A stretch of DNA of 32,000 nucleotides, taken from the NCBI GenBank assembly GCA_025839675.1, contig CP104013.1, positions 1,860,001 through 1,892,000 of the forward strand, in the 5' to 3' direction. The notes below the pieces were generated by a model. It was not told where the DNA came from. It was given only the letters and a program-made list of their open reading frames with translations, and did not search any database. This stretch comes from Candidatus Lokiarchaeum ossiferum. GTDB taxonomy: Archaea; Asgardarchaeota; Lokiarchaeia; Sigyniarchaeales; Promethearchaeaceae. Positions 1 to 17,700 of the stretch are shown one piece after another. A program made the position numbers and the translations under genes. Within the stretch, counting starts at the first letter, position 1; each line of letters starts with the position of its first letter.

Positions 1-3000
1 CTCACCCCATGGATATATTATCGGAGGATTAATTACTTCTATTTCAGTCTCCCAATATTCAATTATTTCTAAATCGAGATTAACTGTTTTTGTTGCAGTA
101 TTCTCTTTTTGGGCACTTAGAGTTAAGGTGTATTGTCCTGCCGGGAAATTAATAAGCGATTTATTACAAATATATTCTCCTGTACTTACCTCATAGACAT
201 CTAAATCCAATCCGATTGAATCTATCCTTCCGGATAACGTCGGATAAATTTCGAGGAAACTCAAAAATTGAACTCCCAAGCTTAACACTTCATTTTGTGC
301 AATTTTTATCGCATTCGAAGATATTTTAAAATCTTTACCAATTGAATAAACGAAATCCACTGATCTTCGAAGAACTAAAATATTCACAGAAGATTTTTCG
401 GAAAGTGAATAATTGGTTAATTCCATTGTGAATTCAAGCAAGAATGATCCCACTTTACTCGCAAGGAAAGTAAAATTATATTCACCATTTTCTGTAAAGT
501 CCAGATACCCTCTTTCAATAGAATTACTTCCGGGTTGAGAAACGTTGTACAAATTATACTCTATTAATGCCCCATCGATCCTTTTTCCTAAAATACTGCT
601 GGAAGATTCAGTGACATTCATTATGACGTTTATGTCGATTGAATCATCGAAATAAAGTTCTACTTCTTGGATCTCCGATTCACTATCAAATGGTGTAAGA
701 GAAGTATCCACAGGACGAATTGAAACCCATGGTTTTACAGTTGCTATAGAATATTGAGATTGTTCAATGGTTGGAATGATATAGAATAATTTCTCACTTG
801 CTACTTCTAAAACACTCGTATTTACCTCAATTCGATAATAACCATCGCCATAAGCACCATCATCTTTTAGATTTTCCCAAGTCCAATTTGCAGGATCACT
901 CGAAGAAAGCAAAATTTCTTCAACTTCAGTAGCACCTTCCATATAAGTAATCGAGAGTTGAGAAATTTCGGCATCACTCAGCGGATCGCTTAATCGAGGT
1001 TCGGATGTGCATTCATAATAAACATAGAATGTGACATTATTACTCCAAGAAGTTGATAATGGAGGATTAACGATTTCTAATTTGGAACTCCAGGTAGATA
1101 AGATTTCCACATTTATTTTGATAGTTGAATTTTCGTGGTTCATTTTTTCAGTGATAATGTAAAATTCGTGGAAACCTAAACTAAAACCAGAAGCACTTAC
1201 CGTACAGTTATATTGCCATTCTCCAAGCCCATAATTATAATTCATTATAGGATTGGCAAGAGTATCTAAATATACCGTAATACTTGCATCATTGACTTGG
1301 CTGGAATTACTCACATAGGTATAATTCAAAAATGTCGTGATATTTTCCGTGATTGATGTTCGTAGTGAAGTATCACTTATTTTGAAGTCGGATTCAATAA
1401 AAGTATCTGTTTGAGTATCTACAGGTAAAATAGTAATCACTACAGTCAAGGATTGCGCCGTAAGGTTTCTTGCAGCAGCACTCAAACTGATTGTGTAAAC
1501 CCCAACATTCAAACTATATTTTGAAACAGTGAGTAAATACACACTACTGCTCGCATCTAAACTCGCTAATGTTCCCGAAAATACAGTATCTTGAATGGTA
1601 TATTCAATGGTTGAAATCGAATCAGAAATGTTCATAATTTCAGGAAGAACTGTTGTATAGTTGAAAGAAATAACAATATCTTGATCCCATTGTTTAGTAA
1701 GTTCAGATGTAGATGTTATTCGTTGGAATTTTGTGGTGTGATTCAATATTCGAATTTCACAAACAAAAGTAGAACTTTGCAAATCTTCAGTACCAGCATT
1801 TTGACCTCCTACTACAAATGTAAACACATAAGTTCCTGCCCCATACTGTGTTGAGAATAAACTAATATTGTATAAACCGGTCCCCACAGATAAATCATTG
1901 AAATCATCTGAGGATGAATCATTTATACTGTTTCCATTTTTAGTTAATTCCCAACTTCCTGTAGTTAGCCCTACTCCATGAGTTACAGCAGCATCATTGA
2001 AGAGATCATAAAAATATAGTTCTATTTCTACTGAATCCCCATAATACATTGTGAGATAAAATTGTGAACTTGAATCACTTGTTTGATTGTTATCATGAAC
2101 ACTGTCCCATCCTGTAATTCCAGATTTTCCAAAATATAAATCAGTATTTGATAAACTGGTTTTATGTTCTGTTAAGGAAACATACACAATTTTCGATTGG
2201 ATTGTGTCTGCAGTAATAGTCCAATTATAGATCCCATAATTTCCATTTGTTGGAGAAATAGATATTGGCCTGTATTTATTCTGATAGTTAACAGTAATAT
2301 TATAAATAGAACGAGGACAACGTATTGTGAGATTACCTTGGGCATTACTTTGGAAATAAGTAATATTTAACCCAGTATAGAAATTTTTAAGAGTAATATT
2401 TGCGTTGTATAAACCTCTGTAAGCAATTGGAATATTATCATCAGCATCCCAAACCATTAAGTTTATTGTTGTCAAATTACAATCCAATAAAGATCCGGTT
2501 AAAACATAATCTTGATCTTGTGGATCGATTGCTATGTAATTTGGGTTTTCATAAATAATATAATCTGTGGTTAACCCAGAAGATTCTTCTCCAACAGTAT
2601 ATTTTACCCATACATCCCAAGATGCACTATAAATGTTTTGTAATCGAATTTTACCACTCCCATCCGAAACAATCTCGAATGTTTTGGAAGAATCTGCGTT
2701 GTCAGTAAAATTAACAACCGCATTGGGAATAATATTACCATCATGATCATAGACTGTTAATTCATATGTTGTTAAGTTTGCATTAATCTCTTCAAAGATA
2801 TAATCATTTGCTGTAGCAATTTCTAAGGAAAAGTTTAAGATGATTTCCCTTCCACTACCAGCAGCAACATCCACAACTAAATTCCAAGAATCACTCTCAG
2901 TACTATTATATATTCCTAGAAATTCAATAACTCCATCATCCAAATTCCCACTAAAACTCGTACCATCCTTATTAGTCAATTGGATCGAAGGTGATACTGA

Positions 3001-5844
3001 GTTTGATAATGGTGTTCCCGAATAATCATTGATAGTAAATTGCACATTTGTTAAATTAGCTATAATTGTATCGAAGATCAATTCTTCATTATCTTCAAAT
3101 GTTGAATTTCTGACTTGATATACATTATCATAAATCACGTGATCATCAGATGAGGTAACAGTCAATTGCCAATTGCTGGAAGTTTCATATACTTCCGTTA
3201 AAGTGACGTTTCCATTGACATCCGTTATACCAGATTTGATAATAGATGGATCATTTAGATTAGTTAGCGCTACCGTGGCACCAGAGATATCATTCAATGA
3301 AGGATCTAAGAAATTCAACCTAGTATTTGTCAAATTTCTGTTTAATGTCAATTCAGAAGAATTTAATGATAAATAAAATATTTCCCAATTAAAAACAGGA
3401 CTATATAGAGGTTCAATTGTTTTAGTATAATTGGCAACTATGAAACCACTTTCAGTTTGTAACTTAATCCTATAATCACCAAAGGGGATTTGAGTAAACA
3501 AAGCTTCCTCACTTGTAACCAAAGATGAAAAACTGACAGATGGATTATCAATATATTCCATTAAAACTTGCCCATTTACTAAATTTGGTATATAGAATTT
3601 AACATTTGTTAAATTACATATAATTTCATAGTTTGATGTTGATATGGCACTATCTAACACATAGGTACTATTAAAAATTGTATAATAAGTTGGGGCACCA
3701 TATTTTACTTTTACAATCAACCTCCAAGTTTCATTATACATTCCTGTAACAGATAATGACCCATCTGTCAAATCCGCTAAATCATACGATGAAAATAGAG
3801 ATTGATCACTTTCTTTATAGATTGAAAAATTCAGATTTGCTATTGGATTTCCATCTTCAGTTTGATCAATTAATCTCCCCAGATCATCTTTAATAGTAAA
3901 AACCGCATCAATAAACACTTCCGTCTGCACTGTAAAATCTATATTGCTGAAGTATACTTTGCTTTGACTATCAGTAAAATAACTTAATTCCACTCCAGAA
4001 TCAATTTCAATTCCAACAGTCCAACGTAATCTGCCCGAATTATCTAAAGCATCACGTTGAGTAGAATTTAAGATCCACCCGAACTGATCACAACCTGTCC
4101 CATATCCAAGAGAAGCACCCCGAACATCAGCAAAGGAATTTAGAGAATAATTAGTAAATGTGTAGTCTGCATTAAATGTACCAGAAGAAGATTCATCAAT
4201 TTCCAAGATAGCAAATACACGAGCTTTTTCTAAAGTTTCTGATAAATTTGCAGCATTAGCACTTCTAATTGCAGTTGGAATTTGATATCCGAACGTCAGT
4301 TCAGCGGGAGATTCGGGTATTATTGATCGTTTAGATCCCCAAGCAACAGGATCTGAAGTAATTAAAATTTGCTCCGGAGAAGATGGTAAATCATAAGGAG
4401 TTGATTCAGTGACCTCTACATAAGGTTCCACAATTTCTACAGAAACACCATTATCTTGTTCAAAATATTCATATATTGCATTATCAATGTGATTAGGATC
4501 ATTACGAATACCTCGAAAATACCCATATTGATGATGAGTTAAATCAACAGTCATCTGTAAGAAATACCAACCTGTACTATCTAATTCTGATCCAAAGTCA
4601 CCACTTTGAGTAATGGAAACATCATCGTCAAATGCACCAGTTCCAGAATCTTCTGAGAAGGATTTAATTGATTGTGTATTGGGTACCATAACAGGTGATC
4701 CCCCATTATATTCCCAAATATCATAAGTCAATTCGCCCGTAATATCAGTTTGATAAAATGTTTCATTTGCAATCTCATATCCTTGATAATTTGAATTAAT
4801 TACGACTTTATCCAAAGGATGATATTCAAGTTCACCGATTTCATATAGATTAACATCAGCCCCATAATAGGCATTTGTTGAATCGGTAGTTTGATCATAG
4901 TAAAAATACATTCGAATTTCAGTTGAATAATCAAATGAAGTATCCCAGTACGCGTTCACATATTGAGTATTGTCAATCGTACCATCTTGACCTGTACTTT
5001 GAATATAAAGGTGCCACCAAGTAGTCCTTGCTGCTTCAATGCTGATTGTGTCTTGATCATAATCTACACTATAGCTCCTTTGAGGTGCGATTTTAGAATC
5101 AGCATAGTCACCATATGTACCGCTAGGTGTTGTAGTTGAAGATTGTAAAACAGCAGGTCCCAAAATAGTTCCAGATTCGTAAGTATTTGCAGGGTACGTG
5201 TAACTGTAGGATCGAGGATTATCTTGAAAAGTCCAATCTTCAGTATACATCATCACATTTGATAAGCTGTTTCCATATACACTCCGACCTGTACTATTAA
5301 ATTCTTCACCACTTGCTAAATAACCCACACTTGAAGGAGTTGACTCATCAATGTGCAATAACCCAGTAGATTCATTCATATCCGTATTATTCAGAGAAAA
5401 GAGTTTTGTTCTTCGAGCACTATCAAGTTGGATGGCCCCAACACCCAAATCCTCGAAATCAGTACTTCCAGCAACATAAGAATTAGAATCATATACATAA
5501 TCATTAAAAGGATTCCAATTTTGAGTATTAGTCTTTGTTTGGGTTGTTAGACCAGAAGTGATGGATCCATCCCCCCAATATGTATCAACGTAACTATTAG
5601 CACCATCATAAGTCCATACTGAAGGATTAAATTTTTCACTATATACTCCCTCGGGTATGAAGTTCTTTTCTTCATATAAACCATCAAGAGCACTATTTAT
5701 ATCTTGATTCGGTCCAAGTTCATCTCCCGTCGTTAAGTTTTCTTCAAAGTTATAAAAAGGATTATCAAACCCGACAGAAAAGATCTGGAGACAAAAGATA
5801 AAAACTAACACGATAGAATTTAGGTTATTTTTCTTTGTTTTCAT
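1..5844 (-). CDS. Giant secreted/surface protein, paralog 1. Only the N-terminal 1948 codons lie in the window; the ORF runs off the left edge.
   Basis: ATG at 5844-5842 follows a GAGGT Shine-Dalgarno-like motif (TTTGAGGTAATTAAATG). The N-terminus MKTKKNNLNSIVLVFIFCLQIFSVGF has a basic n-region and a hydrophobic core, like a signal peptide. I checked in-frame triplets in more than 15 sequence lines spread over the region and found no stop. The frame reaches base 1 (...LDLEIIEYWETEIEVINPPIIYPWGE). It is absent from the supplied ORF track, presumably because it has no stop in the window. Its C-terminal half is collinear with the 2017-aa protein (LEIVNPPLSTSW vs LEIITPPTVYPW; WTWENLKDDGAYGDGYYRIEVNTSV vs WDWENLKNNPNYGSGYYLIWFNTSV). 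Confidence 0.85.
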   Translation of the reverse strand, partial: MKTKKNNLNSIVLVFIFCLQIFSVGFDNPFYNFEENLTTGDELGPNQDINSALDGLYEEKNFIPEGVYSEKFNPSVWTYDGANSYVDTYWGDGSITSGLTTQTKTNTQNWNPFNDYVYDSNSYVAGSTDFEDLGVGAIQLDSARRTKLFSLNNTDMNESTGLLHIDESTPSSVGYLASGEEFNSTGRSVYGNSLSNVMMYTEDWTFQDNPRSYSYTYPANTYESGTILGPAVLQSSTTTPSGTYGDYADSKIAPQRSYSVDYDQDTISIEAARTTWWHLYIQSTGQDGTIDNTQYVNAYWDTSFDYSTEIRMYFYYDQTTDSTNAYYGADVNLYEIGELEYHPLDKVVINSNYQGYEIANETFYQTDITGELTYDIWEYNGGSPVMVPNTQSIKSFSEDSGTGAFDDDVSITQSGDFGSELDSTGWYFLQMTVDLTHHQYGYFRGIRNDPNHIDNAIYEYFEQDNGVSVEIVEPYVEVTESTPYDLPSSPEQILITSDPVAWGSKRSIIPESPAELTFGYQIPTAIRSANAANLSETLEKARVFAILEIDESSSGTFNADYTFTNYSLNSFADVRGASLGYGTGCDQFGWILNSTQRDALDNSGRLRWTVGIEIDSGVELSYFTDSQSKVYFSNIDFTVQTEVFIDAVFTIKDDLGRLIDQTEDGNPIANLNFSIYKESDQSLFSSYDLADLTDGSLSVTGMYNETWRLIVKVKYGAPTYYTIFNSTYVLDSAISTSNYEIICNLTNVKFYIPNLVNGQVLMEYIDNPSVSFSSLVTSEEALFTQIPFGDYRIKLQTESGFIVANYTKTIEPLYSPVFNWEIFYLSLNSSELTLNRNLTNTRLNFLDPSLNDISGATVALTNLNDPSIIKSGITDVNGNVTLTEVYETSSNWQLTVTSSDDHVIYDNVYQVRNSTFEDNEELIFDTIIANLTNVQFTINDYSGTPLSNSVSPSIQLTNKDGTSFSGNLDDGVIEFLGIYNSTESDSWNLVVDVAAGSGREIILNFSLEIATANDYIFEEINANLTTYELTVYDHDGNIIPNAVVNFTDNADSSKTFEIVSDGSGKIRLQNIYSASWDVWVKYTVGEESSGLTTDYIIYENPNYIAIDPQDQDYVLTGSLLDCNLTTINLMVWDADDNIPIAYRGLYNANITLKNFYTGLNITYFQSNAQGNLTIRCPRSIYNITVNYQNKYRPISISPTNGNYGIYNWTITADTIQSKIVYVSLTEHKTSLSNTDLYFGKSGITGWDSVHDNNQTSDSSSQFYLTMYYGDSVEIELYFYDLFNDAAVTHGVGLTTGSWELTKNGNSINDSSSDDFNDLSVGTGLYNISLFSTQYGAGTYVFTFVVGGQNAGTEDLQSSTFVCEIRILNHTTKFQRITSTSELTKQWDQDIVISFNYTTVLPEIMNISDSISTIEYTIQDTVFSGTLASLDASSSVYLLTVSKYSLNVGVYTISLSAAARNLTAQSLTVVITILPVDTQTDTFIESDFKISDTSLRTSITENITTFLNYTYVSNSSQVNDASITVYLDTLANPIMNYNYGLGEWQYNCTVSASGFSLGFHEFYIITEKMNHENSTIKINVEILSTWSSKLEIVNPPLSTSWSNNVTFYVYYECTSEPRLSDPLSDAEISQLSITYMEGATEVEEILLSSSDPANWTWENLKDDGAYGDGYYRIEVNTSVLEVASEKLFYIIPTIEQSQYSIATVKPWVSIRPVDTSLTPFDSESEIQEVELYFDDSIDINVIMNVTESSSSILGKRIDGALIEYNLYNVSQPGSNSIERGYLDFTENGEYNFTFLASKVGSFLLEFTMELTNYSLSEKSSVNILVLRRSVDFVYSIGKDFKISSNAIKIAQNEVLSLGVQFLSFLEIYPTLSGRIDSIGLDLDVYEVSTGEYICNKSLINFPAGQYTLTLSAQKENTATKTVNLDLEIIEYWETEIEVINPPIIYPWGE

Positions 5845-6134: not shown

Positions 6135-7268
6135 TCAATCAGCTGCGACTTCTTCCTTCTTTTTCGCCACCGCTTTCTTCAATTTCGCTTGAGCATAATA
6201 TTCGTCTTTCATCATATCCAAGGCTTTTAACAGCGCATTCGGATTTTGAGAGCGGGTACGATACTGTTGACGAATGTTGTCAATATTATAGCGCGGATAA
6301 AAGCGTTCAATGAAGAAATCCGAGGTCAAACAGAAATATTCATTGTTCTTATCGTCTTGGAAGACCGCAATCATCTTGGTTTCCCACATGGCTTTCAGAA
6401 CCCGATCCACATCATCCACCCCTTTCTTCCGAAGTTTTTCCAAGTCATTGCGGGTCACCATCGCTTCCCGCATCAATTTGATCACTTCGTAGCAAGCTGG
6501 ATCCAACAGAACTTTATCAATGATCGCCAAATTATCTGCTTCGCTGGGGACATACAGTTCAAAGAAATTCCGCACTTCCTTGATGTAAGAATCCTTCAAG
6601 GATGCAGGCAAGTGATGATCCACCGGATCTTTAACCAGCTCCACCGGAGGGGTGCGTAAGACCATGATATCTTCAGTTAAAAAGACCAAATCAGAAGATA
6701 ACCCCTTCACGGAAGCGATTTTCACGAGCCCAAGTTTCACCATCCCCGCCAAGAGGTTTTCCACATCCACAAAACCCTCGCGGTATTGATCCTTCATCCA
6801 AATCGAGATTTCAGATTTCGAAATGGCAGTTTCTTCCCGTAACCGATTCAGCAACATCCGTTTTACATCACTATTTAATAACATCCCATAGCGTTGTTCT
6901 TCGGTTAACGTTGGATAGACCGACAGACGTTGGAACAAGGGAGGCAAAATCGAATTTAAGGAATCCGACTCCAAATTCATCAGAATCTGGCGTGTAATTT
7001 CCGCTAAGCCCTCTTCATACACATCCCCATCTTCTTCAGCGGTGAGTATCAAGATCACATACACTGCCGATTCGGGTCCAGTATAATAGGAAGCGAGGTT
7101 GACCGCCCCTGCCGTCAATGACACCATTCCCGCTTCACCGGTAAATTCATGCTGAGAATACAGCTGCATCAAGGTTTTCTCTTGAATTACCACTTCTTCA
7201 GGGTAGGCACCTAACACTTCGACCCCTACCCGTTCATCCCAATGCATAATGACTAATCCGGTTGGCAT
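6135..7268 (-). CDS. 377-aa soluble partner protein, copy 1. Predicted longin/roadblock-like N-domain, two winged-helix-like domains and a Lys-rich tail. Function unknown.
   Basis: Complete ORF in the track. The ATG lies 1 nt after the stop of the upstream giant gene, with GGAGGG 7 nt upstream. No hydrophobic stretch long enough for a TM helix or signal peptide. No P-loop or catalytic motif recognised. Residues 1-360 are identical to the ORF at 13648-14781. Confidence 0.93.
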   Translation of the reverse strand: MPTGLVIMHWDERVGVEVLGAYPEEVVIQEKTLMQLYSQHEFTGEAGMVSLTAGAVNLASYYTGPESAVYVILILTAEEDGDVYEEGLAEITRQILMNLESDSLNSILPPLFQRLSVYPTLTEEQRYGMLLNSDVKRMLLNRLREETAISKSEISIWMKDQYREGFVDVENLLAGMVKLGLVKIASVKGLSSDLVFLTEDIMVLRTPPVELVKDPVDHHLPASLKDSYIKEVRNFFELYVPSEADNLAIIDKVLLDPACYEVIKLMREAMVTRNDLEKLRKKGVDDVDRVLKAMWETKMIAVFQDDKNNEYFCLTSDFFIERFYPRYNIDNIRQQYRTRSQNPNALLKALDMMKDEYYAQAKLKKAVAKKKEEVAAD

Positions 7269-7281
7269 TTTAAAGCCCTCC
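7266..7281 (-). promoter_or_regulatory. Translational-coupling junction: Shine-Dalgarno motif embedded in the last codons of the giant gene, then stop, 1 nt, start
   Basis: The minus strand reads GTA GGA GGG CTT TAA A ATG. GGAGGG (7281-7276) encodes the terminal ...VGGL and lies 7 nt upstream of the partner ATG (7268-7266). Confidence 0.7.
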
Positions 7282-10200
7282 TACTTTTTCATCACCTGAA
7301 GTGACATTTGCATCCTTATTAGATTTAACTTCATCGAGATTTAAAACTGCTGCTAAATCTAAATCGATTAAAGACCATCGATTTTTTAACCTTTCTAATA
7401 TTTCGTTCTTAGCAGACACTGTAATTAACTCATCTCCAATGGAACGCTTCTTTTCTATGTCCTTCTTAGTGGCGTCAATTTGCTTGATTATTAATGGAAT
7501 ATTGGCATACTTGATATAACTGTATGTTGCAAGTATTACTGCCATAGCTCCAATTGTAGCTCCAATTATCATCCAGGATCGATAAGTGACTCCTATTAGT
7601 GGATCTATAGGTAATCCAACTTGAAAAGCAATAGGAATAGAAGTTGTTGTATAATTTTCCCTTGTAATAATTATATTAAATTGATAGGGTTGATTTCTTG
7701 CTTCTAATAAAGCTAATTCATCTAAACTTAAGGTAATGGAATACACTCCAGCTGTGGCAGAATCTTCAATCAAATTGTACGTTTTTCCATTCAATTCAAA
7801 AGAGACGGATACATCAGACAAACTGATTCCACTAATTTTATCAGCAATATTAATACTAAAACTAATTTCCCTATTTTTCGGTGTAAATATAGTATTATTA
7901 TCGATATTTAATCCAGTTTGCAAGGAGAATTCTTTTCGTAAACAATTGAAAAATGCAGAAATTGTTGTAGATGTATAATTTTCAAGAAAACTAGTGACAT
8001 AAATTTTGTATTCACCAATTTTAATTGCATTTAATGAGAATTGATACAATCCATTACTTAGATCATCGAGAATTCCACTTTGAAGTATTTGAGACTCATC
8101 TTCTCTACTCACAATTTGATAATTCAATTGTGCACCTTCTATGTTTTTCCCATAAATCGCACTACTTTCATCAGTTACATTTAATTTAACGGAAAACTTT
8201 GTAGATTGATCTAAGATCAATTCAAAAGACTCTACATTTTGGATTTCAGTAGTTGAAGGAGTCAGACCAGTTCGAAGGGCTGTGATCCATATATATGGGC
8301 GAATCGATGCATTTTGGTATAATGAATAGTCTAGAGTTGGAATAGCATAAAATACCCCCGACGATTCGACAGATACAACACTAGTATTAAACCAAATTAA
8401 ATAGTACCCACTTCCATAATTCGGATTATTTTTCAAATTTTCCCAATCCCATAATAACCCTCGCTGATTTTCACCTAAGCTTAATAATTGTAATTCAATC
8501 CCTTCCACTTTATGAGTAATATTTAATGAAAGGACATCAGCAGCATCTAATGCCACATCAGAACGTGTTGGATCGACACTTTCATATCTTACAACGAAGG
8601 ATGAGATATTATTCCAAGGGTATACTGTTGGAGGAGTAATGATCTCCAGATTTGTATCCCAATAATCTAAAATCTCAAGATCGAGATAAATTGATTTGCT
8701 TTCATAGTAGAGCTTGGAAGCTTGAATCTTAACATCGTATTTCCCAATGTCATATAAATCAACATCAATGGAACAATTATAAACACCATTTCCATTGTTG
8801 AATAATGGAATTTCTGCATTATCTTCAACACCTTCAATGAATGCAGATACTGACGCACTCAAACCGAGATAGTTTTCAGATAAATCTGTATAATTGATTT
8901 GGAAGGTAATAATTTCTCCTTTAGCACCTTTCATATAAGTAGATGTGTAAGCAAATAAGTTATCGATAGACACATCTAATACTGTCGGATTTGCTATAAT
9001 TTGAAGGGCGTATGTTTGATCAACTTCCTTATAGTTGGTTTGATTTCCAAAAATTCTTAGAGTATAAATTCCAACAGGTAAATTCAAATTCACAATTGAA
9101 AGATTGTATGTACACCAGTTATCATCCATATCTTGATTCAAAACATATTGTTCAAGTACCCCCGAAACACTTCTACCTACTACTTCATAATTTAAAATGG
9201 CGTTAGAAATGTTTCTCATTTCAGGATAAACACTATAATAATCTACTTGAAGGGAAAGTGCACTATTCCATTGAATAACAAAATCTTCACCCTCATTTTT
9301 CATTTCGAGATAAGAATTGAAGTTCAATATTTCTATTTCAATCTCTAAAAACGAATCTTGAAGATCCGTTTTATTCAATAATAAACTAAAGATATAAGTG
9401 CCAGCAAATAATGATTCTGTGTAAAATGAAAGATTATAAAAACCAGAACCAACATCAAGATCTCCAATATTAGTTGAAGAATTCACAATTTGATTCGAAT
9501 CTTTCCGTAAAAGTGACCAAACACCTCCTGCACCTATAATAGGGACACCATCTTGAATATCTTCAAAATATAATTCTAATGAAAATATTTCTCCATAATA
9601 AACTTCTATAGAATAAGGTTCAATTGTGGTAATATTTTGTGAAGACCAATACTGAGAGCTAAACGAAGAGATAGTCAACTTAGTCTTATGTTCTTGAATA
9701 GAAACGTTGAATACTACAGAAGTTAAGCTAGTTAGTACAATAGTGTTTGTTAAGTTCTCATCTTGTCCGATATCATTTCCAATGATAAAACTACGCAATT
9801 TGTTTTTCACAGATACAGAAAAGTTCCATTGTGTTGCTGGTAATCTAAAAGTAACTATTCCATCACTGTTGGTTAAACTTGAGGTGATGTTAACATTCAC
9901 ACCAGAAGTTGCATTCATTAACGTGACATTTGCCGACCGTAAAATTTGATCATCATAATCTGAATAATAAATATCAGCAACAAAAATATTCAAGGTTGTT
10001 AGATTACAATTAAATATATCATAATAACGCCTACCATCAGAACCAATAGAAAACGTAATATCTTTGGTAAATATAGTATAGTTAACAGCATCATTCACAG
10101 AATATTTTACAGAAAATGACCATATATCATCATATAGTCCTTTAAAGGACACATTTCCAAATGAATTGCTTTGTTTTATAGTAATATCTTCGCCGCTGCT

Positions 10201-13200
10201 ATTTGATATTTGAATAAATGCCCCTTCAATGATTTTTTGGTCAATATCTTTTAAATTAACCATAATTCTGGCATCATAATTTTCGACAGCAGTTCCTTTA
10301 ATAACCCTAGGATCATTCTGTAACCCTTTGGCTCGAATTTTTGTTATACCACCATCATAATTATCAAAAACTTGACCGTACATCGTGAATGTCATCGTAT
10401 CTCCTGCAGGTACCGCTTGAGCACGAATTTGAAAAGAATTTGAAAGACCCCCTACCCCTAATGTCGCTCGATAAAGATAAGAATAAGATGTAGTTGGAGC
10501 AATATCCCAGACAGTTCCAACTCCAACCATATCATTTTCATCCCACATTGTATGCCAAGCTTCCTTACGGAATAGATAAGTTGCTGTAGTATCAATTGAA
10601 CTATAACTATCATCTGTACAAAATTCCTTTGATCCATCGATTCCTAAATCTGCATCGTCATCAAAATTCATCCCTCCAAATCCATAAGCTGTATCTTCGT
10701 CAACTGGTTGAGACCAATCATTTGTAAAAGTCCAGTATCCAGCACCTACTGCCGTTTTTGCATAGATTTGGTGATCAATTTTTATTGTATCATCAAGATA
10801 ATTCAGAGTATAAAATCGTTCGTAGATAAAATCTGACGAATCAAAAACCATCTTCATAACTACTCGGATTGGACCACTTGAAACAATTTGTAAACTTGAT
10901 AGACCATAAAAACAATTGTATGGCTCAGTATCATATCGCTGAGTTATTCCACCATATTGCCAATCTTTCAAAGCCCAGCCTCGACTTGTCCCTGGATTAG
11001 TTAAAGTTTTACCGGATCTAAGATCGGTCACCTCATAAATATGATCATGATATTGACCAACAGGAGGCAAACCTTCAGCCAAGGATATTTGAATCTTAGA
11101 GTTTCTAATTGTAAAATCATCGTTATCATTCATGATATAATCGAGAGCACTCGAACTTGTATAATTAACAGCGTCTTTATAATCAAATTCAGTATTGTCA
11201 AAATATATGAAATAAAATCGAGAACGTGATGAAGTAGTTTTCCCATCTGCCACCCAACAAAGAGTCCCTTTTGCGTTATTCTCTGCAATGAAATATTCAT
11301 CTTTATCAAATTGATAAGGAATTTCTCGAGATTCTCCCGAAAATTCATCCCATTCAATAATTCGAATTGAATTTTCGTCAAATGTGGAAAACACCCCTAA
11401 ATCAGTGAATATTTCAGTAAAATCCAATTCTTCTTCTATTAAATAATTACTGTAATAATGGTTTCCTTTTGGGGACGATAAATTCAAATTCAATCGATAG
11501 CTCCATTGGGCATCCCACCATGGAGCTTCAGAAATCATAGCTAAATTTGATTGATATTCACGATACGTTGGAGGATTCACATATATTTCAGGCATTCCCA
11601 TAAATGAAGAAGTTTGATTTAAATAAGCATAACCACCAAAATAATTGTTATTAATAATTGATTCTACTTCTCCAGTTGTATTGAAATATACGTAGTATTT
11701 TCTTACTTCACGAGTGTAGGTAGTTGATAAGGCAAGATCTGGGATTTCCGTTAAAACATTATTACTACTTGAAAAACCAGTCGTAAAACCCCAATTCGAA
11801 TCACCATCCCTATTTCTGTAACGTACCAATAAGGAATGCCACCCTTTAGTCACCTTAGCCAAATTATATCGTATATATTGAGTTAAATCCGCGGTTGAAT
11901 CATTATAATTATAACCTCGATTTACACCGTCCCAATAAAGCCACATATCATCAAGTCGTTCAGCAGTAAACCAAGTATATGTTGAATCAACAGTTTCAGG
12001 AAAATATATATAGGTTTGCGCCCAAGCATAATGATTTGTACCTCCTGGTACACCCAAAGGCACGCTAAAATCAATATAATTACCATTACTTAGGTATTCA
12101 TCCCATTGATATCCAAAAGTAATATCATCTGGACTATAATAGTTTTCTAAATTTATCACTCGAGTTTCCGTACCAACCACGGCCCAATTTCGAATAAAGC
12201 CTCCATAAGTATTATTACAAGATATTGTATCGGATCCATTTTTTATCCAAGAAATTGTAGCAGTTGCATTTAATTGTGAATCAAACCCAATAACTTCATC
12301 ATCCCAATCAATAGTCATTGTACGCTCGCCGTTCAAACTAGAAGTAGAATTATATTCAACTAAAATTGCAGAATCTAAGTCAATATCTGCAGATAATCGC
12401 ATATTCGAAAGCTGGTCAGTAAAATTTATTTTTTGAGAGAGAGTTTTATCTGTTTCCAAATTCATTTCATCAGTTACATCAATGGAAAATCTATATTGAT
12501 ATTCATTACCGTCAGAATACCATGGATCTTTTTGATCGCCATTATATATATCCACAATTTCTTCATCTGTTAGTTCCACATCATAGATACGTATGTCGTC
12601 GAGATAATCTGCAAAACGATAGTTATTTGATCGATAATTTCCAAGAATATACACTTCTGACATTGTTTTTCGGTTAGCACTCCCCAAAAATTCCCCATCT
12701 ATATAGAAATCAGTTTGAGAATCATGACCTGTTGCGACTAAATGATGCCATCCGGTATAAGAACTCAAGTCATGACCTATTCCAGACCAACCCGCATCAT
12801 AAGTTCCTAAATCATAAGTGTTAGGATAACCCCCAACCCAAAATTGTCCTTGACCACATACTAACATTTGCCACCTACCAACTTGGACAATATCTTTGAA
12901 CCAAGCAGATATGGTCCATTGTTCATCAAGATCCACATCATTTATTAAACGAATACGTGAATTGGATTCTGGAATATCCAACACATTTCCTCTTTCGGGA
13001 TCTAAATATTGACTCACGACTTCAGGAGTTCCGTCATGACCATTATTTGTGACATCGCGCCCCAAATCTTCGGAATCTTCAAAATCATAATGAGCAACTA
13101 AATGATCTGAGGCAATAATACCACTTGATCTAATAGATGCAGTATTTTCAGACTCATCGCCAACCAGATTTTCAAATGCGTCTGATGCGATATTAGAATC

Positions 13201-13323
13201 TAAAAAACTACTCATTTGAAGACTACTACTACACACGATAAATAGTATGCTTATAATTTTTACTTTATTTTTGAGAGATTTCAACATATTTTCATTCTCC
13301 TTTTTAAAAATCTTAATCTGCAT
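7270..13323 (-). CDS. Giant surface protein, paralog 2 (2017 aa): signal peptide, LamG-like lectin head, beta-sandwich modules, one C-terminal TM helix and a conserved cytoplasmic tail
   Basis: Complete ORF in the track. The true start is probably M13 (ATG at 13287-13285). It is preceded by AAAAAGGAGAATGAAAAT and gives MLKSLKNKVKIISILFIVCSSS, which looks like a signal peptide. N-x-S/T sequons are very frequent. Confidence 0.93.
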   Translation of the reverse strand: MQIKIFKKENENMLKSLKNKVKIISILFIVCSSSLQMSSFLDSNIASDAFENLVGDESENTASIRSSGIIASDHLVAHYDFEDSEDLGRDVTNNGHDGTPEVVSQYLDPERGNVLDIPESNSRIRLINDVDLDEQWTISAWFKDIVQVGRWQMLVCGQGQFWVGGYPNTYDLGTYDAGWSGIGHDLSSYTGWHHLVATGHDSQTDFYIDGEFLGSANRKTMSEVYILGNYRSNNYRFADYLDDIRIYDVELTDEEIVDIYNGDQKDPWYSDGNEYQYRFSIDVTDEMNLETDKTLSQKINFTDQLSNMRLSADIDLDSAILVEYNSTSSLNGERTMTIDWDDEVIGFDSQLNATATISWIKNGSDTISCNNTYGGFIRNWAVVGTETRVINLENYYSPDDITFGYQWDEYLSNGNYIDFSVPLGVPGGTNHYAWAQTYIYFPETVDSTYTWFTAERLDDMWLYWDGVNRGYNYNDSTADLTQYIRYNLAKVTKGWHSLLVRYRNRDGDSNWGFTTGFSSSNNVLTEIPDLALSTTYTREVRKYYVYFNTTGEVESIINNNYFGGYAYLNQTSSFMGMPEIYVNPPTYREYQSNLAMISEAPWWDAQWSYRLNLNLSSPKGNHYYSNYLIEEELDFTEIFTDLGVFSTFDENSIRIIEWDEFSGESREIPYQFDKDEYFIAENNAKGTLCWVADGKTTSSRSRFYFIYFDNTEFDYKDAVNYTSSSALDYIMNDNDDFTIRNSKIQISLAEGLPPVGQYHDHIYEVTDLRSGKTLTNPGTSRGWALKDWQYGGITQRYDTEPYNCFYGLSSLQIVSSGPIRVVMKMVFDSSDFIYERFYTLNYLDDTIKIDHQIYAKTAVGAGYWTFTNDWSQPVDEDTAYGFGGMNFDDDADLGIDGSKEFCTDDSYSSIDTTATYLFRKEAWHTMWDENDMVGVGTVWDIAPTTSYSYLYRATLGVGGLSNSFQIRAQAVPAGDTMTFTMYGQVFDNYDGGITKIRAKGLQNDPRVIKGTAVENYDARIMVNLKDIDQKIIEGAFIQISNSSGEDITIKQSNSFGNVSFKGLYDDIWSFSVKYSVNDAVNYTIFTKDITFSIGSDGRRYYDIFNCNLTTLNIFVADIYYSDYDDQILRSANVTLMNATSGVNVNITSSLTNSDGIVTFRLPATQWNFSVSVKNKLRSFIIGNDIGQDENLTNTIVLTSLTSVVFNVSIQEHKTKLTISSFSSQYWSSQNITTIEPYSIEVYYGEIFSLELYFEDIQDGVPIIGAGGVWSLLRKDSNQIVNSSTNIGDLDVGSGFYNLSFYTESLFAGTYIFSLLLNKTDLQDSFLEIEIEILNFNSYLEMKNEGEDFVIQWNSALSLQVDYYSVYPEMRNISNAILNYEVVGRSVSGVLEQYVLNQDMDDNWCTYNLSIVNLNLPVGIYTLRIFGNQTNYKEVDQTYALQIIANPTVLDVSIDNLFAYTSTYMKGAKGEIITFQINYTDLSENYLGLSASVSAFIEGVEDNAEIPLFNNGNGVYNCSIDVDLYDIGKYDVKIQASKLYYESKSIYLDLEILDYWDTNLEIITPPTVYPWNNISSFVVRYESVDPTRSDVALDAADVLSLNITHKVEGIELQLLSLGENQRGLLWDWENLKNNPNYGSGYYLIWFNTSVVSVESSGVFYAIPTLDYSLYQNASIRPYIWITALRTGLTPSTTEIQNVESFELILDQSTKFSVKLNVTDESSAIYGKNIEGAQLNYQIVSREDESQILQSGILDDLSNGLYQFSLNAIKIGEYKIYVTSFLENYTSTTISAFFNCLRKEFSLQTGLNIDNNTIFTPKNREISFSINIADKISGISLSDVSVSFELNGKTYNLIEDSATAGVYSITLSLDELALLEARNQPYQFNIIITRENYTTTSIPIAFQVGLPIDPLIGVTYRSWMIIGATIGAMAVILATYSYIKYANIPLIIKQIDATKKDIEKKRSIGDELITVSAKNEILERLKNRWSLIDLDLAAVLNLDEVKSNKDANVTSGDEKVGGL
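7273..7578 (-). other. C-terminal membrane anchor (SWMIIGATIGAMAVILATYSYIK) plus the 79-aa conserved cytoplasmic tail of paralog 2
   Basis: A roughly 23-residue hydrophobic helix is followed by YANIPLIIKQIDATKKDIEKKRSIGDELITVSAKNEILERLKNRWSLIDLDLAAVLNLDEVKSNKDANVTSGDEKVGGL. The tail aligns without gaps to the paralog 3 tail with 47/79 identities by hand. Confidence 0.8.
11188..11526 (-). other. DUF2341-like module (aa ~600-712) in paralog 2
   Basis: APWWDAQWSYRLNLNLSS...FDENSIRIIEWDE...EIPYQFDK...GTLCWVADG...RFYFIYFDN matches my recollection of the DUF2341 pattern (W-x-Y-R-K...I.F.D..G..LPYWIE...WVKV...IYMYYGN). Assigned by eye only. Confidence 0.45.
11764..12141 (-). other. Possible PA14-like carbohydrate-binding module (aa ~395-520) in paralog 2
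   Basis: YAWAQTYIYFPETVDSTYTWFTAERLDDMWLYWDGVNRG...LAKVTKGWHSLLVRYRNRDGDSNWGF resembles the PA14 core (F.a..G.YtF....DD...L.iDG......L..G.h.i.v.Y.n..G). Pattern recognition only. Confidence 0.3.
12538..13101 (-). other. LamG / concanavalin-A-like lectin domain (Laminin_G_3-type; aa ~75-262) in paralog 2
   Basis: LVAHYDFEDS...DVTNNGHDGT...GNVLDIPES...WTISAWFK...GWHHLVATGHDSQTDFYIDGEFLG...FADYLDDIRIYDVELTDEEI follows the characteristic Laminin_G_3 order (LvahY.FD..a.DsSGNG..G...g.al.FdG...T.saWvk...WhHvA.t.d...l.lYvDG...f.G.iDevRIYnraLs.eEI). Confidence 0.7.
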
Positions 13324-13619
13324 TTATAGTTTGTATAAGTCGTATATTTATTTTTCGCTCATCCCCATAGATTTTGGAATTCCAATACAATAATGGAAAT
13401 TGAAGTTTTATCAATTTCTTTCACATTAGAACCATTCCTTATAATAATGGATTTTTCTTTTGTTATAATCGAATTAAGGAATCAAAATGCTAAGGAAATT
13501 TGATAGATTAATTCACATTTAAGAGTTAGAAGAGGTTATTCCATATCCAGAAATGAGAAATGGTAAAAATCAAAAAAAATGTTGAAGAAGTAAAATTGGT
13601 TAAATTGTTTTTAGGAAGT

Positions 13620-13635
13620 AAAAAAAATTAAAAAA
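13620..13635 (-). terminator. Bipartite oligo-T tract (T6-AA-T8 on the minus strand) downstream of partner gene copy 2
   Basis: The plus strand has A8 (13620-13627), tt, then A6 (13630-13635), 13-28 nt beyond the stop at 13648-13650. The arrangement matches that after copy 1. Confidence 0.5.
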
Positions 13636-13647
13636 TTACGCCACGAA

Positions 13648-14781
13648 TTATTCTACTGCGACTTCTTCCTTCTTTTTCGCCGCCGCTTTCTTCAATTTCA
13701 CTTGGGCATAATACTCGTCCTTCATCATATCCAAGGCTTTTAACAGCGCATTCGGATTTTGAGAGCGGGTACGATACTGTTGACGAATGTTGTCAATATT
13801 ATAACGCGGATAAAAACGTTCAATGAAGAAATCCGAGGTCAAACAGAAATATTCATTGTTCTTATCATCTTGGAAGACCGCAATCATCTTGGTTTCCCAC
13901 ATGGCTTTCAAAACCCGATCCACATCATCCACCCCTTTCTTCCGAAGTTTTTCCAAATCGTTGCGAGTCACCATGGCTTCCCGCATCAATTTAATCACTT
14001 CATAGCAGGCCGGATCCAAGAGTACTTTATCGATGATCGCCAAATTATCCGCTTCACTGGGGACATACAGTTCAAAGAAATTGCGTACTTCCTTGATGTA
14101 AGAATCCTTCAAAGATGCCGGTAGATGATGATCCACGGGATCTTTGACCAACTCCACCGGAGGAGTACGTAAAACCATGATATCCTCGGTTAAAAAGACC
14201 AAATCAGAAGATAACCCCTTCACGGAAGCGATTTTCACAAGCCCAAGTTTCACCATCCCCGCCAAGAGGTTTTCCACATCCACAAAACCTTCGCGGTATT
14301 GATCCTTCATCCAAATCGAGATTTCGGATTTCGAGATGGCGGTTTCTTCCCGTAACCGATTCAATAACATCCGTTTGACATCACTATTTAATAACATCCC
14401 ATAGCGTTGTTCTTCGGTTAACGTTGGATAGACTGATAGACGTTGGAACAAGGGAGGCAAAATCGAATTTAAGGAATCCGACTCCAAATTCATCAGAATC
14501 TGACGCGTAATTTCCGCCAATCCTTCTTCATACACATCCCCATCTTCTTCAGCGGTGAGAATCAAGATCACATACACTGCCGATTCGGGTCCGGTATAAT
14601 AGGAAGCGAGATTGACCGCCCCTGCCGTCAATGACACCATTCCAGCTTCACCGGTAAATTCATGTTGGGAATAGAGTTGCATCAAGGTTTTCTCTTGAAT
14701 GACCACTTCTTCAGGGTAGGCCCCTAACACTTCGACACCCACCCGTTCATCCCAATGCATAATGACTAATCCGGTGGGCAT
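13648..14781 (-). CDS. 377-aa soluble partner protein, copy 2
   Basis: Complete ORF. The junction with the upstream giant gene is the same (GGAGGGCTTTAAAATG). Amino acid differences from copy 1 occur only at residues 361, 367, 376 and 377. The stop codon differs (TAA here, TGA in copy 1). Confidence 0.93.
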   Translation of the reverse strand: MPTGLVIMHWDERVGVEVLGAYPEEVVIQEKTLMQLYSQHEFTGEAGMVSLTAGAVNLASYYTGPESAVYVILILTAEEDGDVYEEGLAEITRQILMNLESDSLNSILPPLFQRLSVYPTLTEEQRYGMLLNSDVKRMLLNRLREETAISKSEISIWMKDQYREGFVDVENLLAGMVKLGLVKIASVKGLSSDLVFLTEDIMVLRTPPVELVKDPVDHHLPASLKDSYIKEVRNFFELYVPSEADNLAIIDKVLLDPACYEVIKLMREAMVTRNDLEKLRKKGVDDVDRVLKAMWETKMIAVFQDDKNNEYFCLTSDFFIERFYPRYNIDNIRQQYRTRSQNPNALLKALDMMKDEYYAQVKLKKAAAKKKEEVAVE

Positions 14782-14794
14782 TTTAAAGCCCTCC
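14779..14794 (-). promoter_or_regulatory. Translational-coupling junction (SD in terminal codons, stop, 1 nt, start), second instance
   Basis: The plus strand has cat at 14779-14781, t, tta at 14783-14785 and ccctcc at 14789-14794. This is identical to the junction at 7266-7281. Confidence 0.7.
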
Positions 14795-17700
14795 TACTTC
14801 TTCATCACCAGTGGTAATGACAGAATCTGATGCAGTTTTAACATCATTCACCCCTAAAATCGAAGCAAGATCTAAATCTAAAATATCCCATCGATCTTTA
14901 AGACGTTCAACAATTTCTTCTTTGGAGCTTATTGAGATATTGGATTCACCGATCTCATTGTTCTTTTCAATATCTTTTTTCGTTGCATTAATCTTTTTGA
15001 TAATCATCGGAATATTTGCATATTGGACATACTTGGTCACTCCTGCAATAACTATTGCCAATAATCCCACTGCACCACCAATAAATACAAAGATCTTTGG
15101 AACACCTACATTTCCTACAGTAAATTCTGGAGGTGTTACTGAAATAGTAATTGTAAATGGCTCAATGGTATAATTTGCTTTATCTACTGAAACGATTGCA
15201 ATTTCGGTTTTTGCTGCAAGTAGTGCGTTATAATCGATGGAAGCAGTATCTATCACATATCGATATGTTCCAAGAGTATCAGTTTCTTCGACAGTCCAAT
15301 TACTACCTCGATAGTTCATTGAAACTGCTGCCCCCGTTAAAGGTGCTTGAGCGACGGGATCATATAAAGAAAATTCGATCACAATATTTTCACCTTCAGG
15401 CATTTCAACAATTTTATCCGCCAATTCAGCGCTCAATGTTAGAGATATTGGTTTTTCTTTAATATTCAAAGTAATTGACGCAGATCGTTCAATATAATTT
15501 GCTTGACCCAAATGAACAACAAAGAAATACATTCCAACTTGACGTGTAGCAGTATTGAAATCAAGGAGATATTTTCCATCCCCAATATCAACCAATTGGC
15601 CTTCATGAGTTATGCCTTGGAATTCCCATTCGTAGTAAGCAACAATTGCATTTGAAATGCCAACGTATTCACTATCCTCATAAGCGAAAATCATCTGATA
15701 TCCTGTGGTCACATTAATTGAAGTATCCAAATTTACAAATATGGAATTATTAATACTCGTTTGAATCCGATTGATTTTTACATTTATCACTAAGTTTTGA
15801 GTTTGATATTGATATTTTGTGGCTTCAAGATGCATAGTATAAGACCCAACACTTAAAAACTCAGTAGAATTTAGTTCGATCTCATATACTCCTCCACCAA
15901 TCGGAGTCAAATACCCTGTAAAACCAGAAACTTGTCCAACATAATAAGAAATTTCCCCATCCGTTATTGGTCCGTCATTATGAGTATCGAAGAAAGAGAC
16001 TGAAACGGTGAAATTTTCCTTCCATGTTTTATCAAATGACGTTGCTTCTGCACTTATAGATGTGGAAATACCATTAACATAGACGGTGATATATATTTGA
16101 TTCGTTTCATATTGCGACTTGGTGAATTTAACTCGGAATGTGTAAGTTCCTTGTTTACCAAAATCAATCGTATTGAGTTCAAGAGTATATAACCCCATTC
16201 CAGAGTCTGTGAAGATCCCATTACCATATCCAACAGCGGAATAGGTTACTGGACCTCCAATTATGGCGGCAGGAACACTGAGGTTTCTAATATCCATAAG
16301 GTTTACAGAAATATTAAAAATATCTCCCCAATATGCCACTTTTTCATCATCTATATGATTAGAGGACAAAGAAGTTGGAATTATCTTGATGGTCAAAACA
16401 ATTAAAGCTTGGCGACTTCCATATGTTTCTGCGAAGGCATCCAATTGAATGGTATAGGTACCGTTTTGACCAAACTGTGTTGTATTAAATTCCAAACGGA
16501 ATTCATTAGAACCTATATAATTCAAAAATCCTGTAATTTCAGATAAAGAAGAGACATTATACGAGATTTGACCACCAATTACTTCTTGAATATCTTGAGG
16601 ATCTACAACATCTTCATAATATGCACCAATTGTAAAATTCTCTCCCCAGAAATATTCAATTTCATCTGAATAGATTAAAGTTAGATTTGTTTTGATTAAA
16701 TTAATATCTACAATAACTGTTAACTGTCGAGATTGATATTCATCCTTACTCGCTACAACGATGAAAGTATAAGTTCCAGCTCCAGGAAAATCGTCATCAG
16801 TATTAAATGTGATATTGTAGGTACCACCACCAACATGGGAAATAGTCCCAGACGCAGAATACCCACTTGGTCCAGAAACCACATAAGAAATGGATCCATC
16901 GGTAATTGCTATAGGATTCTGTGAATCAGAGTTATCCAAGTAACTTACAGATATGTTAAAATTCTGATTCAATTGTTTTGAAATAGTTAATTCATCTGCT
17001 GTCAAAATTGTAGAAATAATTGAAACATCAACGGTTAACACTACCTGTTGAGTCAAATATTGATTTTTCGTTGCAGTCATGGTTATGGTATAAGTTCCAT
17101 TACCTCCAATATCGGTTTCAGAATTTAATGATAAATAATAAATTCCTGAGCCTTGAGGAGTAAGAAAACCAGAAGCAATTACACCTACAGGACTTATGGT
17201 AAAAGAGACGGTTCCATCATTTATCGGAATAGAAGACGCAAGTTGTTCATCCGTAAAAGTAACCGAAAGAACAAAATTTTCACCCCAGATCACTTCAATA
17301 ACGGAATCACCATTAAGAACTAAATCTGTAGGTACAATGGAAATAGTTAACACTATACTCATTTGAACGGTTTCATATTGGTTCTTTGTTGCAGTGATTG
17401 TAAAAGTATAAGTTCCTGCGTGATCAAAATTAATTGAATTGAAATCAAAGGAATACACACCTGGATTGCTCGATTGATGATTAAGGATACCTAAATCTGA
17501 ATATCCTGAACCCGAGACACTAAAATCGACATTGCTATCAAGAATAGGAGAATCATCTCTAGAATCAGTTAAAGTAACAGAAACAGTAAACCCTTCACCC
17601 CAAAATACATCAATTTCATCATTCCCGACCAAATTAACGGGAATCTTGGAAATATTCAAGAGAATGGATAACGATCTAGTTCCATAATTTACTTTACTCG

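Follow-up and report, generated by a model that had tools for sequence, protein, structure and literature searches.

Introduction

Longin domains serve elsewhere either in tail recognition, as in AP sigma/mu and VAMP7, or as platforms for small GTPases, as in NPRL2/3, FLCN and DENN. Among archaeal surface proteins, PGF-CTERM/archaeosortase signals are cleaved off; they comprise a short motif, a transmembrane (TM) segment and no more than a few basic residues. To our knowledge, nobody has named the complex surface proteins of Asgard archaea or their tie to the cell interior. The present study concerns a stretch of 32,000 nucleotides from Candidatus Lokiarchaeum ossiferum (contig CP104013.1, positions 1,860,001 to 1,892,000; the whole stretch is called the window below), in which giant surface proteins end in a conserved cytoplasmic tail of about 80 residues and are followed by genes for a 377-aa cytosolic protein, here called the partner. 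The best explanation of the locus as a whole, which we consider probable, is a tandem two-gene module in which a longin adaptor docked on the tail would join the ectodomains to shared machinery. A surface receptor with a dedicated cytosolic adaptor is a known kind of arrangement, and an Asgard version of it bears on how the surface is connected with the interior.

Cultured Asgard archaea, L. ossiferum among them, have no S-layer, and cryo-tomography has revealed "complex surface proteins" on their protrusions, which are thought to mediate cell-cell contacts relevant to eukaryogenesis (PMC9834061). Crawling of Asgard archaea depends on regulated adhesion (bioRxiv 10.1101/2025.11.30.690169), and "NPRL2-like longin" families have been reported in Asgard genomes (bioRxiv 10.1101/2020.10.19.343400). 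In the literature searched, neither the tail nor the partner family nor the link between them was found described; such an account may still be published.

Linkage of the Tail and Partner Genes

The open reading frame (ORF) map of the window reveals three tandem two-gene modules on the minus strand, each with a giant type-I surface protein gene followed by a partner gene (Table 1). The source was confirmed by a 377-aa protein that is 100% identical to NEF87_001533. The original prediction, made from the letters of the window, had proposed the tail as a docking site for the co-translated partner. The linkage of the two was counted with a tail hidden Markov model (HMM) and a partner HMM over all ORFs of the fetched loci, which comprised 10 loci from GTDB genomes (9 assessable; Promethearchaeum syntrophicum MK-D1 and Ca. 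Harpocratesius repetitus among them), 69 metagenomic loci and several more obtained via exact protein look-up. In these loci, from Lokiarchaeia and other Asgard metagenome-assembled genomes (MAGs), a partner gene follows the tail-bearing ORF in 73 of 73 cases, and 72 of the 77 assessable partner genes have a tail upstream or fused to them. The linkage holds in all nine genome loci (9/9), and from the giant stop to the partner start there are usually −1 to +3 nt. NEF87_000608/609, a fourth module of L. ossiferum, is laid out alike, with a 3420-aa giant and a partner paralog at 60% identity.

Natural fusions of the two proteins were also found. In five metagenomic loci (L046, L055, L058, L059, L061), ectodomain, TM helix, tail, a linker of ~25 residues and partner form a single ORF, as at the junction "...ILGIKIEKEK|PSGLLVMKWDERIGTE". 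The fused partners of these loci are 43–49% identical to the window partner, and L058 holds a full-length fusion of 2301 aa with a signal-like start. When one fusion served as the query of a protein search, at least 44 further clusters were returned in which the tail motif immediately precedes the partner domain. Their MAGs bear the labels Promethearchaeota, Thor-, Hod- and Lokiarchaeia. Such fusions are Rosetta-stone evidence that tail and partner work together and lie on the same, cytoplasmic side of the membrane.

Probable Docking of the Tail on the Partner

AlphaFold2 (AF2) was employed for the natural fusion P0228 (470 aa: TM helix, tail and partner) with 92 sequences, and gave a mean predicted local distance difference test (pLDDT) of 89.9 and a predicted TM-score (pTM) of 0.84. 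In the model, the TM helix runs into the juxtamembrane region, where it is interrupted at a conserved I/L-P. The basic stretch FVKK...IK forms a helix (residues 33–47), ISE-x-LY an ordered loop, and E-x-F-x-G-E-I / R-D-K-W and L-S-L-G-D-I-L short helices. The pLDDT of these tail elements is 91–95, while that of the linker (residues 91–110) is 55–68. Short elements of such high pLDDT, and a pTM that is no lower in the fusion (0.84) than in the partner by itself (0.82), point to packing of the tail against the partner in the AF2 model. The proposed docking site thus finds support in synteny, spacing, fusions and the AF2 model of the fusion. It is likely that the partner binds the folded portion of the tail in a constitutive 1:1 complex under the membrane. 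The partner has the longin fold, and its putative part as a tail reader is suggested by the unbroken synteny, the 44 fusion clusters and the high pLDDT of the tail, with the longin domain as one candidate for the contact.

The mechanism that we propose is as follows. The first gene encodes a giant, fast-evolving, glycosylated type-I surface protein, adhesin-like in its LamG domain and Ig-like repeats. The second supplies a cytosolic longin/winged-helix protein, translated from a Shine-Dalgarno (SD) sequence within the last Gly-Gly codons of the first. Bound to the partner, the folded tail would make up a receptor-adaptor complex on the cytoplasmic side of the membrane, and in one large subfamily the two have merged into one polypeptide. 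As a second step, the near-invariant adaptor would tie many ectodomains to one common cytoplasmic machinery, a link that we suggest only tentatively. Going by the known roles of longin domains, the adaptor would most likely sort or position surface proteins, or relay signals from outside to inside via small GTPases or the cytoskeleton. By this analogy, DNA binding would be less likely.

Several points weigh against this reading. In the AF2 output, docking is read from pLDDT and pTM, and fusion and synteny demonstrate functional linkage and co-localisation but pinpoint no specific interface. Five orphan partner genes (L024, L026, L035, L073, L076) have no upstream tail, so the partner can exist without a tail in cis. 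Absence of the tail beside a retained partner, like a tail placed outside the cell, had been named beforehand as a reason to doubt the docking; neither was borne out, as the tail is cytoplasmic and the family members, apart from these five, keep both tail and partner. No conserved third gene (GTPase, actin-related or ESCRT) was found beside the module in the window and the long contigs inspected, which leaves the downstream function without direct support. The partner also has no sequence-level tie to NPRL2/3 or to any other Pfam family. Finally, tail and partner identities are correlated over all module pairs (Spearman rho 0.82), but the correlation is confounded by co-inheritance and is consistent with co-evolving units without being decisive. 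For modules of the same contig or genome, tail versus partner identities are 58–65% vs 99–100%, 89% vs 100%, 64% vs 81%, 52% vs 79% and 35–44% vs 59–61%.

Some of the loci show further features. The orphan partners in L024, L026 and L073 sit behind a conserved gene of 210–233 aa (L024 351–1049, L026 7164–7796, L073 2194–2847), which is SAM-dependent methyltransferase-like by eye only. In L073, and possibly in L035, the orphan partner lies directly upstream of the next giant. At L083 13337–14487, a 137-aa unannotated gene and an Arf/Ras/Roc-like GTPase gene lie 2–3 kb downstream of the module, in surroundings that hold genes for beta-helix (NosD) and LRR surface proteins; this GTPase neighbour was not seen in the other loci inspected. 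L010 (JAUVKD010000130.1, labelled as a Methanosarcinaceae archaeon MAG) carries at the contig edge a partner fragment that is 86% identical over residues 35–126, and is probably a mis-binned Lokiarchaeial contig.

The Tail as a Protein Family

The tails of giant1 and giant2 align without gaps at 47 of 79 identical residues, as had been counted by hand. The blocks YANIP(L/M)IIK, ATKKDIEK, E(I/L)(L/V)ERLK(N/D)RW, DLDLA and GDE(K/E)VGGL were all found again. The length of exactly 79 residues holds for the aligned block from YANIP onwards, while hydropathy gives post-TM stretches of 80 and 84 residues. A count of all proteins ending in this tail had been proposed for the genome; a profile built from the two tails was run against 1.84 billion representative proteins and returned 62 matches at E ≤ 1e-3, all at the extreme C-terminus. 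Both giants were matched at E ~1e-42, which puts the likeness of the tails well outside chance, and the other 60 are further relatives. Many of the tail-bearing proteins are 1200–3400 aa long, the short ones being contig fragments.

In an alignment of 110 tails the length is held at 76–85 residues. The consensus reads x-I-Q-x-A-(R/K)-I-P-x-F-V-K-K ... K-K-x-I-K-G-x-K-x-I-S-(D/E)-S-L-L-Y-P-S-K-E-E-x-I-V-E-K-F-G-D-x-W in its first part and continues with E-x-L-(G/D)-L-(S/D)-L-E-x-I-L-G, a variable Lys- or acid-rich linker, G-G and one or two residues. Over the family, the order of elements is an A-(R/K/N)-I-P kink, a basic amphipathic helix, an I-S-x-x-L loop, two short helices ending with an invariant Trp, an L-(D/G)-L-(D/S)-L-x-x-I-L helix and the variable linker. 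The giant1 tail follows it with a juxtamembrane A-N-I-P, a basic amphipathic helix, a loop, the EILERLKNRW-LIDLDL-AVL helices, a variable acidic linker and GGL. Between the two window tails the synonymous divergence (dS) is ~2 and saturated, the nonsynonymous divergence (dN) is 0.35 and their ratio (omega) is ~0.18. Saturated dS with a dN of 0.35 means that conservation acts on the protein.

Two kinds of unusual tails were observed. Some (L036 1–1818, L042, L017) have long acidic Glu/Lys/Leu-rich insertions (EEKLETEELE...) between the ILG helix and GG, so the linker tolerates large expansions. In P0125 (335 aa, ENA, 1116-nt contig), the tail runs after GDEETG into a rubredoxin-like extension (...DDWLCPVCGAGKDEF) and has no GG-x end; the extension may be a different fusion or an assembly artefact.

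The tail had been called the only well-conserved part of the giants. The ectodomains of giant1 and giant2 share only local BLASTP matches at 21–32% identity, which makes the tail the best-conserved part within the window. Between genera, conservation extends to the membrane-proximal stalk and the TM helix. Comparison of the stalk/TM regions (window 7510–7600 and 15023–15130; L002–L009; P0121–P0182) revealed at least three class-specific sequences, "VTPPEFxVGxxGVPKIFVYIGG", "LP(V/I)DPxLG(V/I)xYxxWxIIG" and "(M/V)EE(I/V)FxG(F/I)PTFYFLL", each kept across genera and joined to the same tail.

The cytoplasmic position of the tail, which had been assumed, is borne out by several features. Giant1 and giant2 each have a signal-like hydrophobic N-terminal segment and one strong C-terminal hydrophobic segment, and the post-TM stretch is K-rich in both. 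Their N-x-S/T sequons exceed the expectation from composition (38 vs 25 in giant1, 54 vs 33 in giant2). In giant2, an extra weak hydrophobic segment (1428–1446) scores 1.65, at the cut-off of the hydropathy scan, and is taken to be part of the ectodomain; the Ig-like repeats of this protein give weak YtkA, CarboxypepD_reg and MG4 matches. The fusions settle the topology, because there the tail continues into a partner that has neither signal peptide nor TM segment. A cleaved sorting signal had been excluded by the original prediction, and rightly so, since ~80 conserved residues lie past the TM helix and the fusions extend into a cytosolic protein of 360 aa. The NCBIfam scan gave no match of either giant to CTERM sorting-domain models.

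Fold of the Partner and Alternative Roles

The partner has a pI of 4.9 and is 50–80% identical across Lokiarchaeia. With 76 homologs, AF2 modelled the partner alone at a mean pLDDT of 91.2. Residues 2–116 adopt a longin fold (beta-beta-alpha-beta-beta-beta-alpha-alpha, pLDDT ~90), which is followed by two winged-helix units (helix and beta-hairpin) at ~123–206 and ~243–323 and by a long basic C-terminal helix at 343–376. A Foldseek search against the PDB placed NPRL2/NPRL3 of GATOR1/SEAC on top (8fw5_C, 7t3b_B/C and 9h4q_T as full-length matches), with E from 5e-4 to 2e-3 and a global TM-score of ~0.2. The longin domains of Ykt6, Sec22b, VAMP7 and zeta-COP/sigma-adaptin were matched at a Foldseek probability of 0.9–1.0. 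ESCRT-II (2zme_A, 3cuq_A) matches the winged-helix part weakly (E 6e-3 to 4e-2). At the sequence level, Pfam and NCBIfam gave no match for the window partner, Pfam gave nothing significant among the 76 homologs (NPR2 PF06218 and NPR3 PF03666 included, E up to 1), and a profile search of PDB sequences gave nothing relevant. No EAP30 or Vps25 Pfam match was found in the window partner or its homologs, and the neighbouring genes are unrelated to ESCRT.

These structural matches raise the possibility that the partner regulates small GTPases as NPRL2, FLCN and C9orf72 do, as a longin GAP or GEF platform, and that the giant is a receptor relaying ligand or adhesion state outside to Rag-, Arf- or Rab-like GTPases. 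Such a role agrees with docking and specifies the downstream step. The beta1-loop-beta2 of the partner reads HWDERxG(V/I), in which W10 and G15 are invariant and D11 and R13 are kept in ≥90%. In C9orf72, W33-D34...G38-P39 has been described as the hallmark of GAP-type longins (PMC12290439), and the WD-x3-G spacing of the partner equals this signature. Such GTPases abound in Asgard genomes, as do "NPRL2-like longin" proteins, and an Arf/Ras-like gene lies 2.6 kb downstream in one locus. On the other side, the Pro of the GP motif is replaced by Val/Ile, and the loop YYTGPES, which aligns with the Arg-finger loop of NPRL2 in a hand alignment, has no Arg. Neither a GTPase nor a DEP-domain gene is a conserved neighbour in the window and the other loci, a Pfam match to NPR2, NPR3 or Folliculin is missing, and the global TM-score is low. 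We regard a GTPase-regulator role as a possibility to be kept in mind, though a rather unlikely one.

The partner had been called invariant. Partner A and partner B are indeed identical at 374 of 377 residues, and their genes differ at 69 of 1134 nucleotides (dS 0.32, dN 0.0045, omega 0.014), whereas the adjoining tails are synonymously saturated. DNA identity between the modules is 47–73% in the tails, rises to 93–100% from ~10 nt before the partner ATG, stays at ~94% through the partner ORF and falls to ~35% directly past the stop. Such sharp steps in identity at the two edges point to concerted evolution, by gene conversion, that is limited to the ORF of the partner. The near-identity is therefore real but owes something to concerted evolution; judged from the DNA, the invariance would partly reflect gene conversion on top of very strong purifying selection. 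The GC content of the partner regions (6135–7268, 13648–14781) is 0.385–0.393, against 0.32–0.34 around them.

The partner could also be a dedicated biogenesis or quality-control factor that catches the emerging tail and aids insertion or export of a chain of more than 2000 aa, and is not a permanent adaptor. Translational coupling would deliver the partner when and where the C-terminus of the giant emerges, and the presence of a single partner copy for each giant gene suggests that the two are required in fixed stoichiometry. Yet in a large subfamily the two are permanently fused, which speaks for a lasting and not a transient association, longin and winged-helix domains are not known as chaperone folds, and an omega of 0.014 over the whole 377-aa surface suggests extra conserved partners. 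Such a factor appears improbable to us.

The two winged-helix domains call to mind a membrane-tethered transcription factor that is sequestered by the tail and released on a signal from the ectodomain, in an anti-sigma- or Notch-like manner. Two homologs are labelled "ArsR family regulator" by JGI, and 21 of the 76 homologs show a weak eWH_GTF3C1 match (best E 0.016). No helix-turn-helix (HTH) model of Pfam or NCBIfam is significant for the partner, and the nearest winged-helix structures are of the protein-binding ESCRT-II / GATOR1 type. The acidic character of the partner and of the recognition-position helix of its second winged helix (VDDVDRVLKAMWE), together with the permanent fusion to a membrane protein through a ~25-residue linker in at least 44 clusters from many lineages, makes a transcription factor very improbable.

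The Terminal Gly-Gly and the Start of the Partner Gene

The terminal GG-x is the most invariant feature of unfused tails (95–97%) and is coded by GGAGG(T/G). An SD-like core is present in 65 of 65 unfused junctions and in none of five fusions. At the junction of giant1 and partner A, the stop (7270–7272) is separated by one spacer base from the ATG (7266–7268). The embedded SD explains the fixed distance of the GG block from the stop and its loss upon fusion. The GDE(K/E)VGGL block is thus shared by both tails, as had been noted, but reflects mainly an embedded ribosome-binding site (RBS) rather than a peptide motif.

Conservation of the tail as a set of nucleotide signals for the downstream gene (promoter, RBS or mRNA structure) without any protein function, for which an exact GGAGG 8–13 nt before the partner start in 53 of 65 unfused junctions could be quoted, can hardly be maintained and is ruled out as the sole cause except for GG-x itself, given that the other ~75 residues evolve under protein-level constraint, that DNA identity of the tails is 47–73% only while the motifs persist across genera with different codons, and that they persist in fusions needing no RBS. 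A ubiquitin- or SAMP-like role of the terminal GG was also considered and ruled out: the tail is helical and not a beta-grasp, GG equals GGAGG at SD distance, and it is lost in fusions.

Layout of the Window

The features are collected in Table 1. The GenBank annotation of NEF87_001534 has 2005 aa; translation from the first in-frame ATG yields 2017 aa, the length also called in a Logan assembly (P0184). A poly-T run (TTTTTTAATTTTTTTT) lies directly 3′ of the partner B stop and resembles an archaeal intrinsic terminator, which suggests that each giant-partner pair is its own transcription unit. The AT-rich stretch 5′ of giant1 is presumably the promoter region. The other genes of the window, PadR, HSP20, MFS transporters, U32 peptidase, Lrp/AsnC and CAAX protease, have no obvious link to the modules.

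Table 1. Features of the giant-partner modules, in window coordinates.
Feature	Position	Strand	Remarks
Giant surface protein 3 (NEF87_001532, 2384 aa)	1..5844	-	N-terminal 1948 aa inside window; identical to P0185 over 1948 aa
Giant3 TM helix, tail and own partner NEF87_001531	past window start	-	P0185/P0123 tail matched by tail profile
Partner A (NEF87_001533, 377 aa; 100% identical to P0001)	6135..7268	-	Cytosolic; longin, two winged helices, basic C-terminal helix
Giant surface protein 1 (NEF87_001534, 2017 aa)	7270..13323	-	Signal-like N-terminus, Laminin_G_3 at residues 128-256, Ig-like repeats, 38 sequons
Giant1 cytoplasmic tail, 79 aa	7273..7509	-	Gap-free alignment and tail profile
Shine-Dalgarno GGAGG for partner A	7277..7281	-	Inside Gly-Gly codons at giant1 C-terminus
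Giant1 single C-terminal TM helix (residues 1919-1937)	7513..7569	-	Kyte-Doolittle scan
Module 2 / module 1 intergenic region	13324..13647	-	Sequence read; putative promoter and terminator roles
Partner B (NEF87_001535, 377 aa; 374/377 identical to partner A)	13648..14781	-	ORF map, protein alignment
Giant surface protein 2 (NEF87_001536, 2289 aa)	14783..21652	-	Signal-like N-terminus, about a dozen Ig-like repeats, 54 sequons
Giant2 cytoplasmic tail, 79 aa	14786..15022	-	Alignment and tail profile
Shine-Dalgarno GGAGG for partner B	14790..14794	-	Inside Gly-Gly codons at giant2 C-terminus
Giant2 single C-terminal TM helix (residues 2187-2205)	15038..15094	-	Hydropathy scan

Implications and Comparison with Known Systems

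The module supplies testable candidates for the surface proteins of Asgard archaea, namely a family of giants with one tail and one cytosolic protein that is genetically welded to it. At the same time, one of the many orphan Asgard longin proteins gains a defined candidate ligand. Annotation of Asgard surface proteomes, the design of antibodies or tags for cryo-electron tomography (cryo-ET) and pull-down of the downstream machinery can all start from the tail profile and the partner, while the natural fusions are ready-made single-chain constructs for structural work. The arrangement suggests that the longin fold has read cytoplasmic tails of membrane proteins since ancient times. It is a more speculative thought, to which we give little weight at present, that the module is an archaeal forerunner of eukaryote-style coupling between receptor and interior, in which the tail-bound adaptor would recruit small GTPases, lokiactin or ESCRT on wall-less, protrusion-forming cells. 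If true, it would serve signalling that depends on adhesion, the sorting of proteins of the surface into protrusions, or the budding of vesicles, and longin tail reading would be older than eukaryotic coats and GATOR/FLCN complexes.

Compared with known systems, the giants resemble the PGF-CTERM/archaeosortase surface proteins as large glycosylated archaeal proteins with a single C-terminal TM segment, but unlike them carry a conserved, folded tail of ~80 aa after the TM helix. ESCRT-II (Vps22/Vps25/Vps36) has tandem winged helices of the protein-binding type, as the partner has; it lacks a longin domain, its matches are weak and the partner locus is outside the Asgard ESCRT neighbourhood. The N-terminal domains of AP sigma/mu, zeta-COP and the longins of VAMP7, Sec22b and Ykt6 share the fold and bind short cytoplasmic motifs or helices of membrane proteins. 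They act in multi-subunit coats or SNAREs, whereas the Loki partner is stand-alone and hard-wired to one cargo, with no coat components linked to it. NPRL2/NPRL3 of GATOR1, to which FLCN, SMCR8 and C9orf72 are related, share with the partner an N-terminal longin domain followed by domains of winged-helix type, and a WD-x3-G-like motif. They differ in that the partner has no NPR2/NPR3 Pfam match, no evident GP proline or Arg finger and no DEPDC5 or Rag gene nearby, and in that binding to a surface-protein tail is not known for NPRL2/3.

The pairs of cadherin tail with beta-catenin and p120, and of integrin beta tail with talin and kindlin, have no kinship in sequence or fold with the module, whose adaptor consists of longin and winged-helix domains and not of armadillo or FERM domains. 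The Loki pair stands in an operon or a fusion, which is prokaryotic logic, and an actin link is known for the eukaryotic pairs alone. In other respects the proposed pair is similar: single-pass type-I adhesion proteins with repeat-rich, fast-evolving ectodomains, a short tail as the best-conserved part, a highly conserved 1:1 cytosolic adaptor, and many receptors sharing one adaptor. By analogy, the eukaryotic adhesion receptor-adaptor pairs, cadherin-catenin and integrin-talin, would be the functionally nearest counterparts of the tail-partner module.

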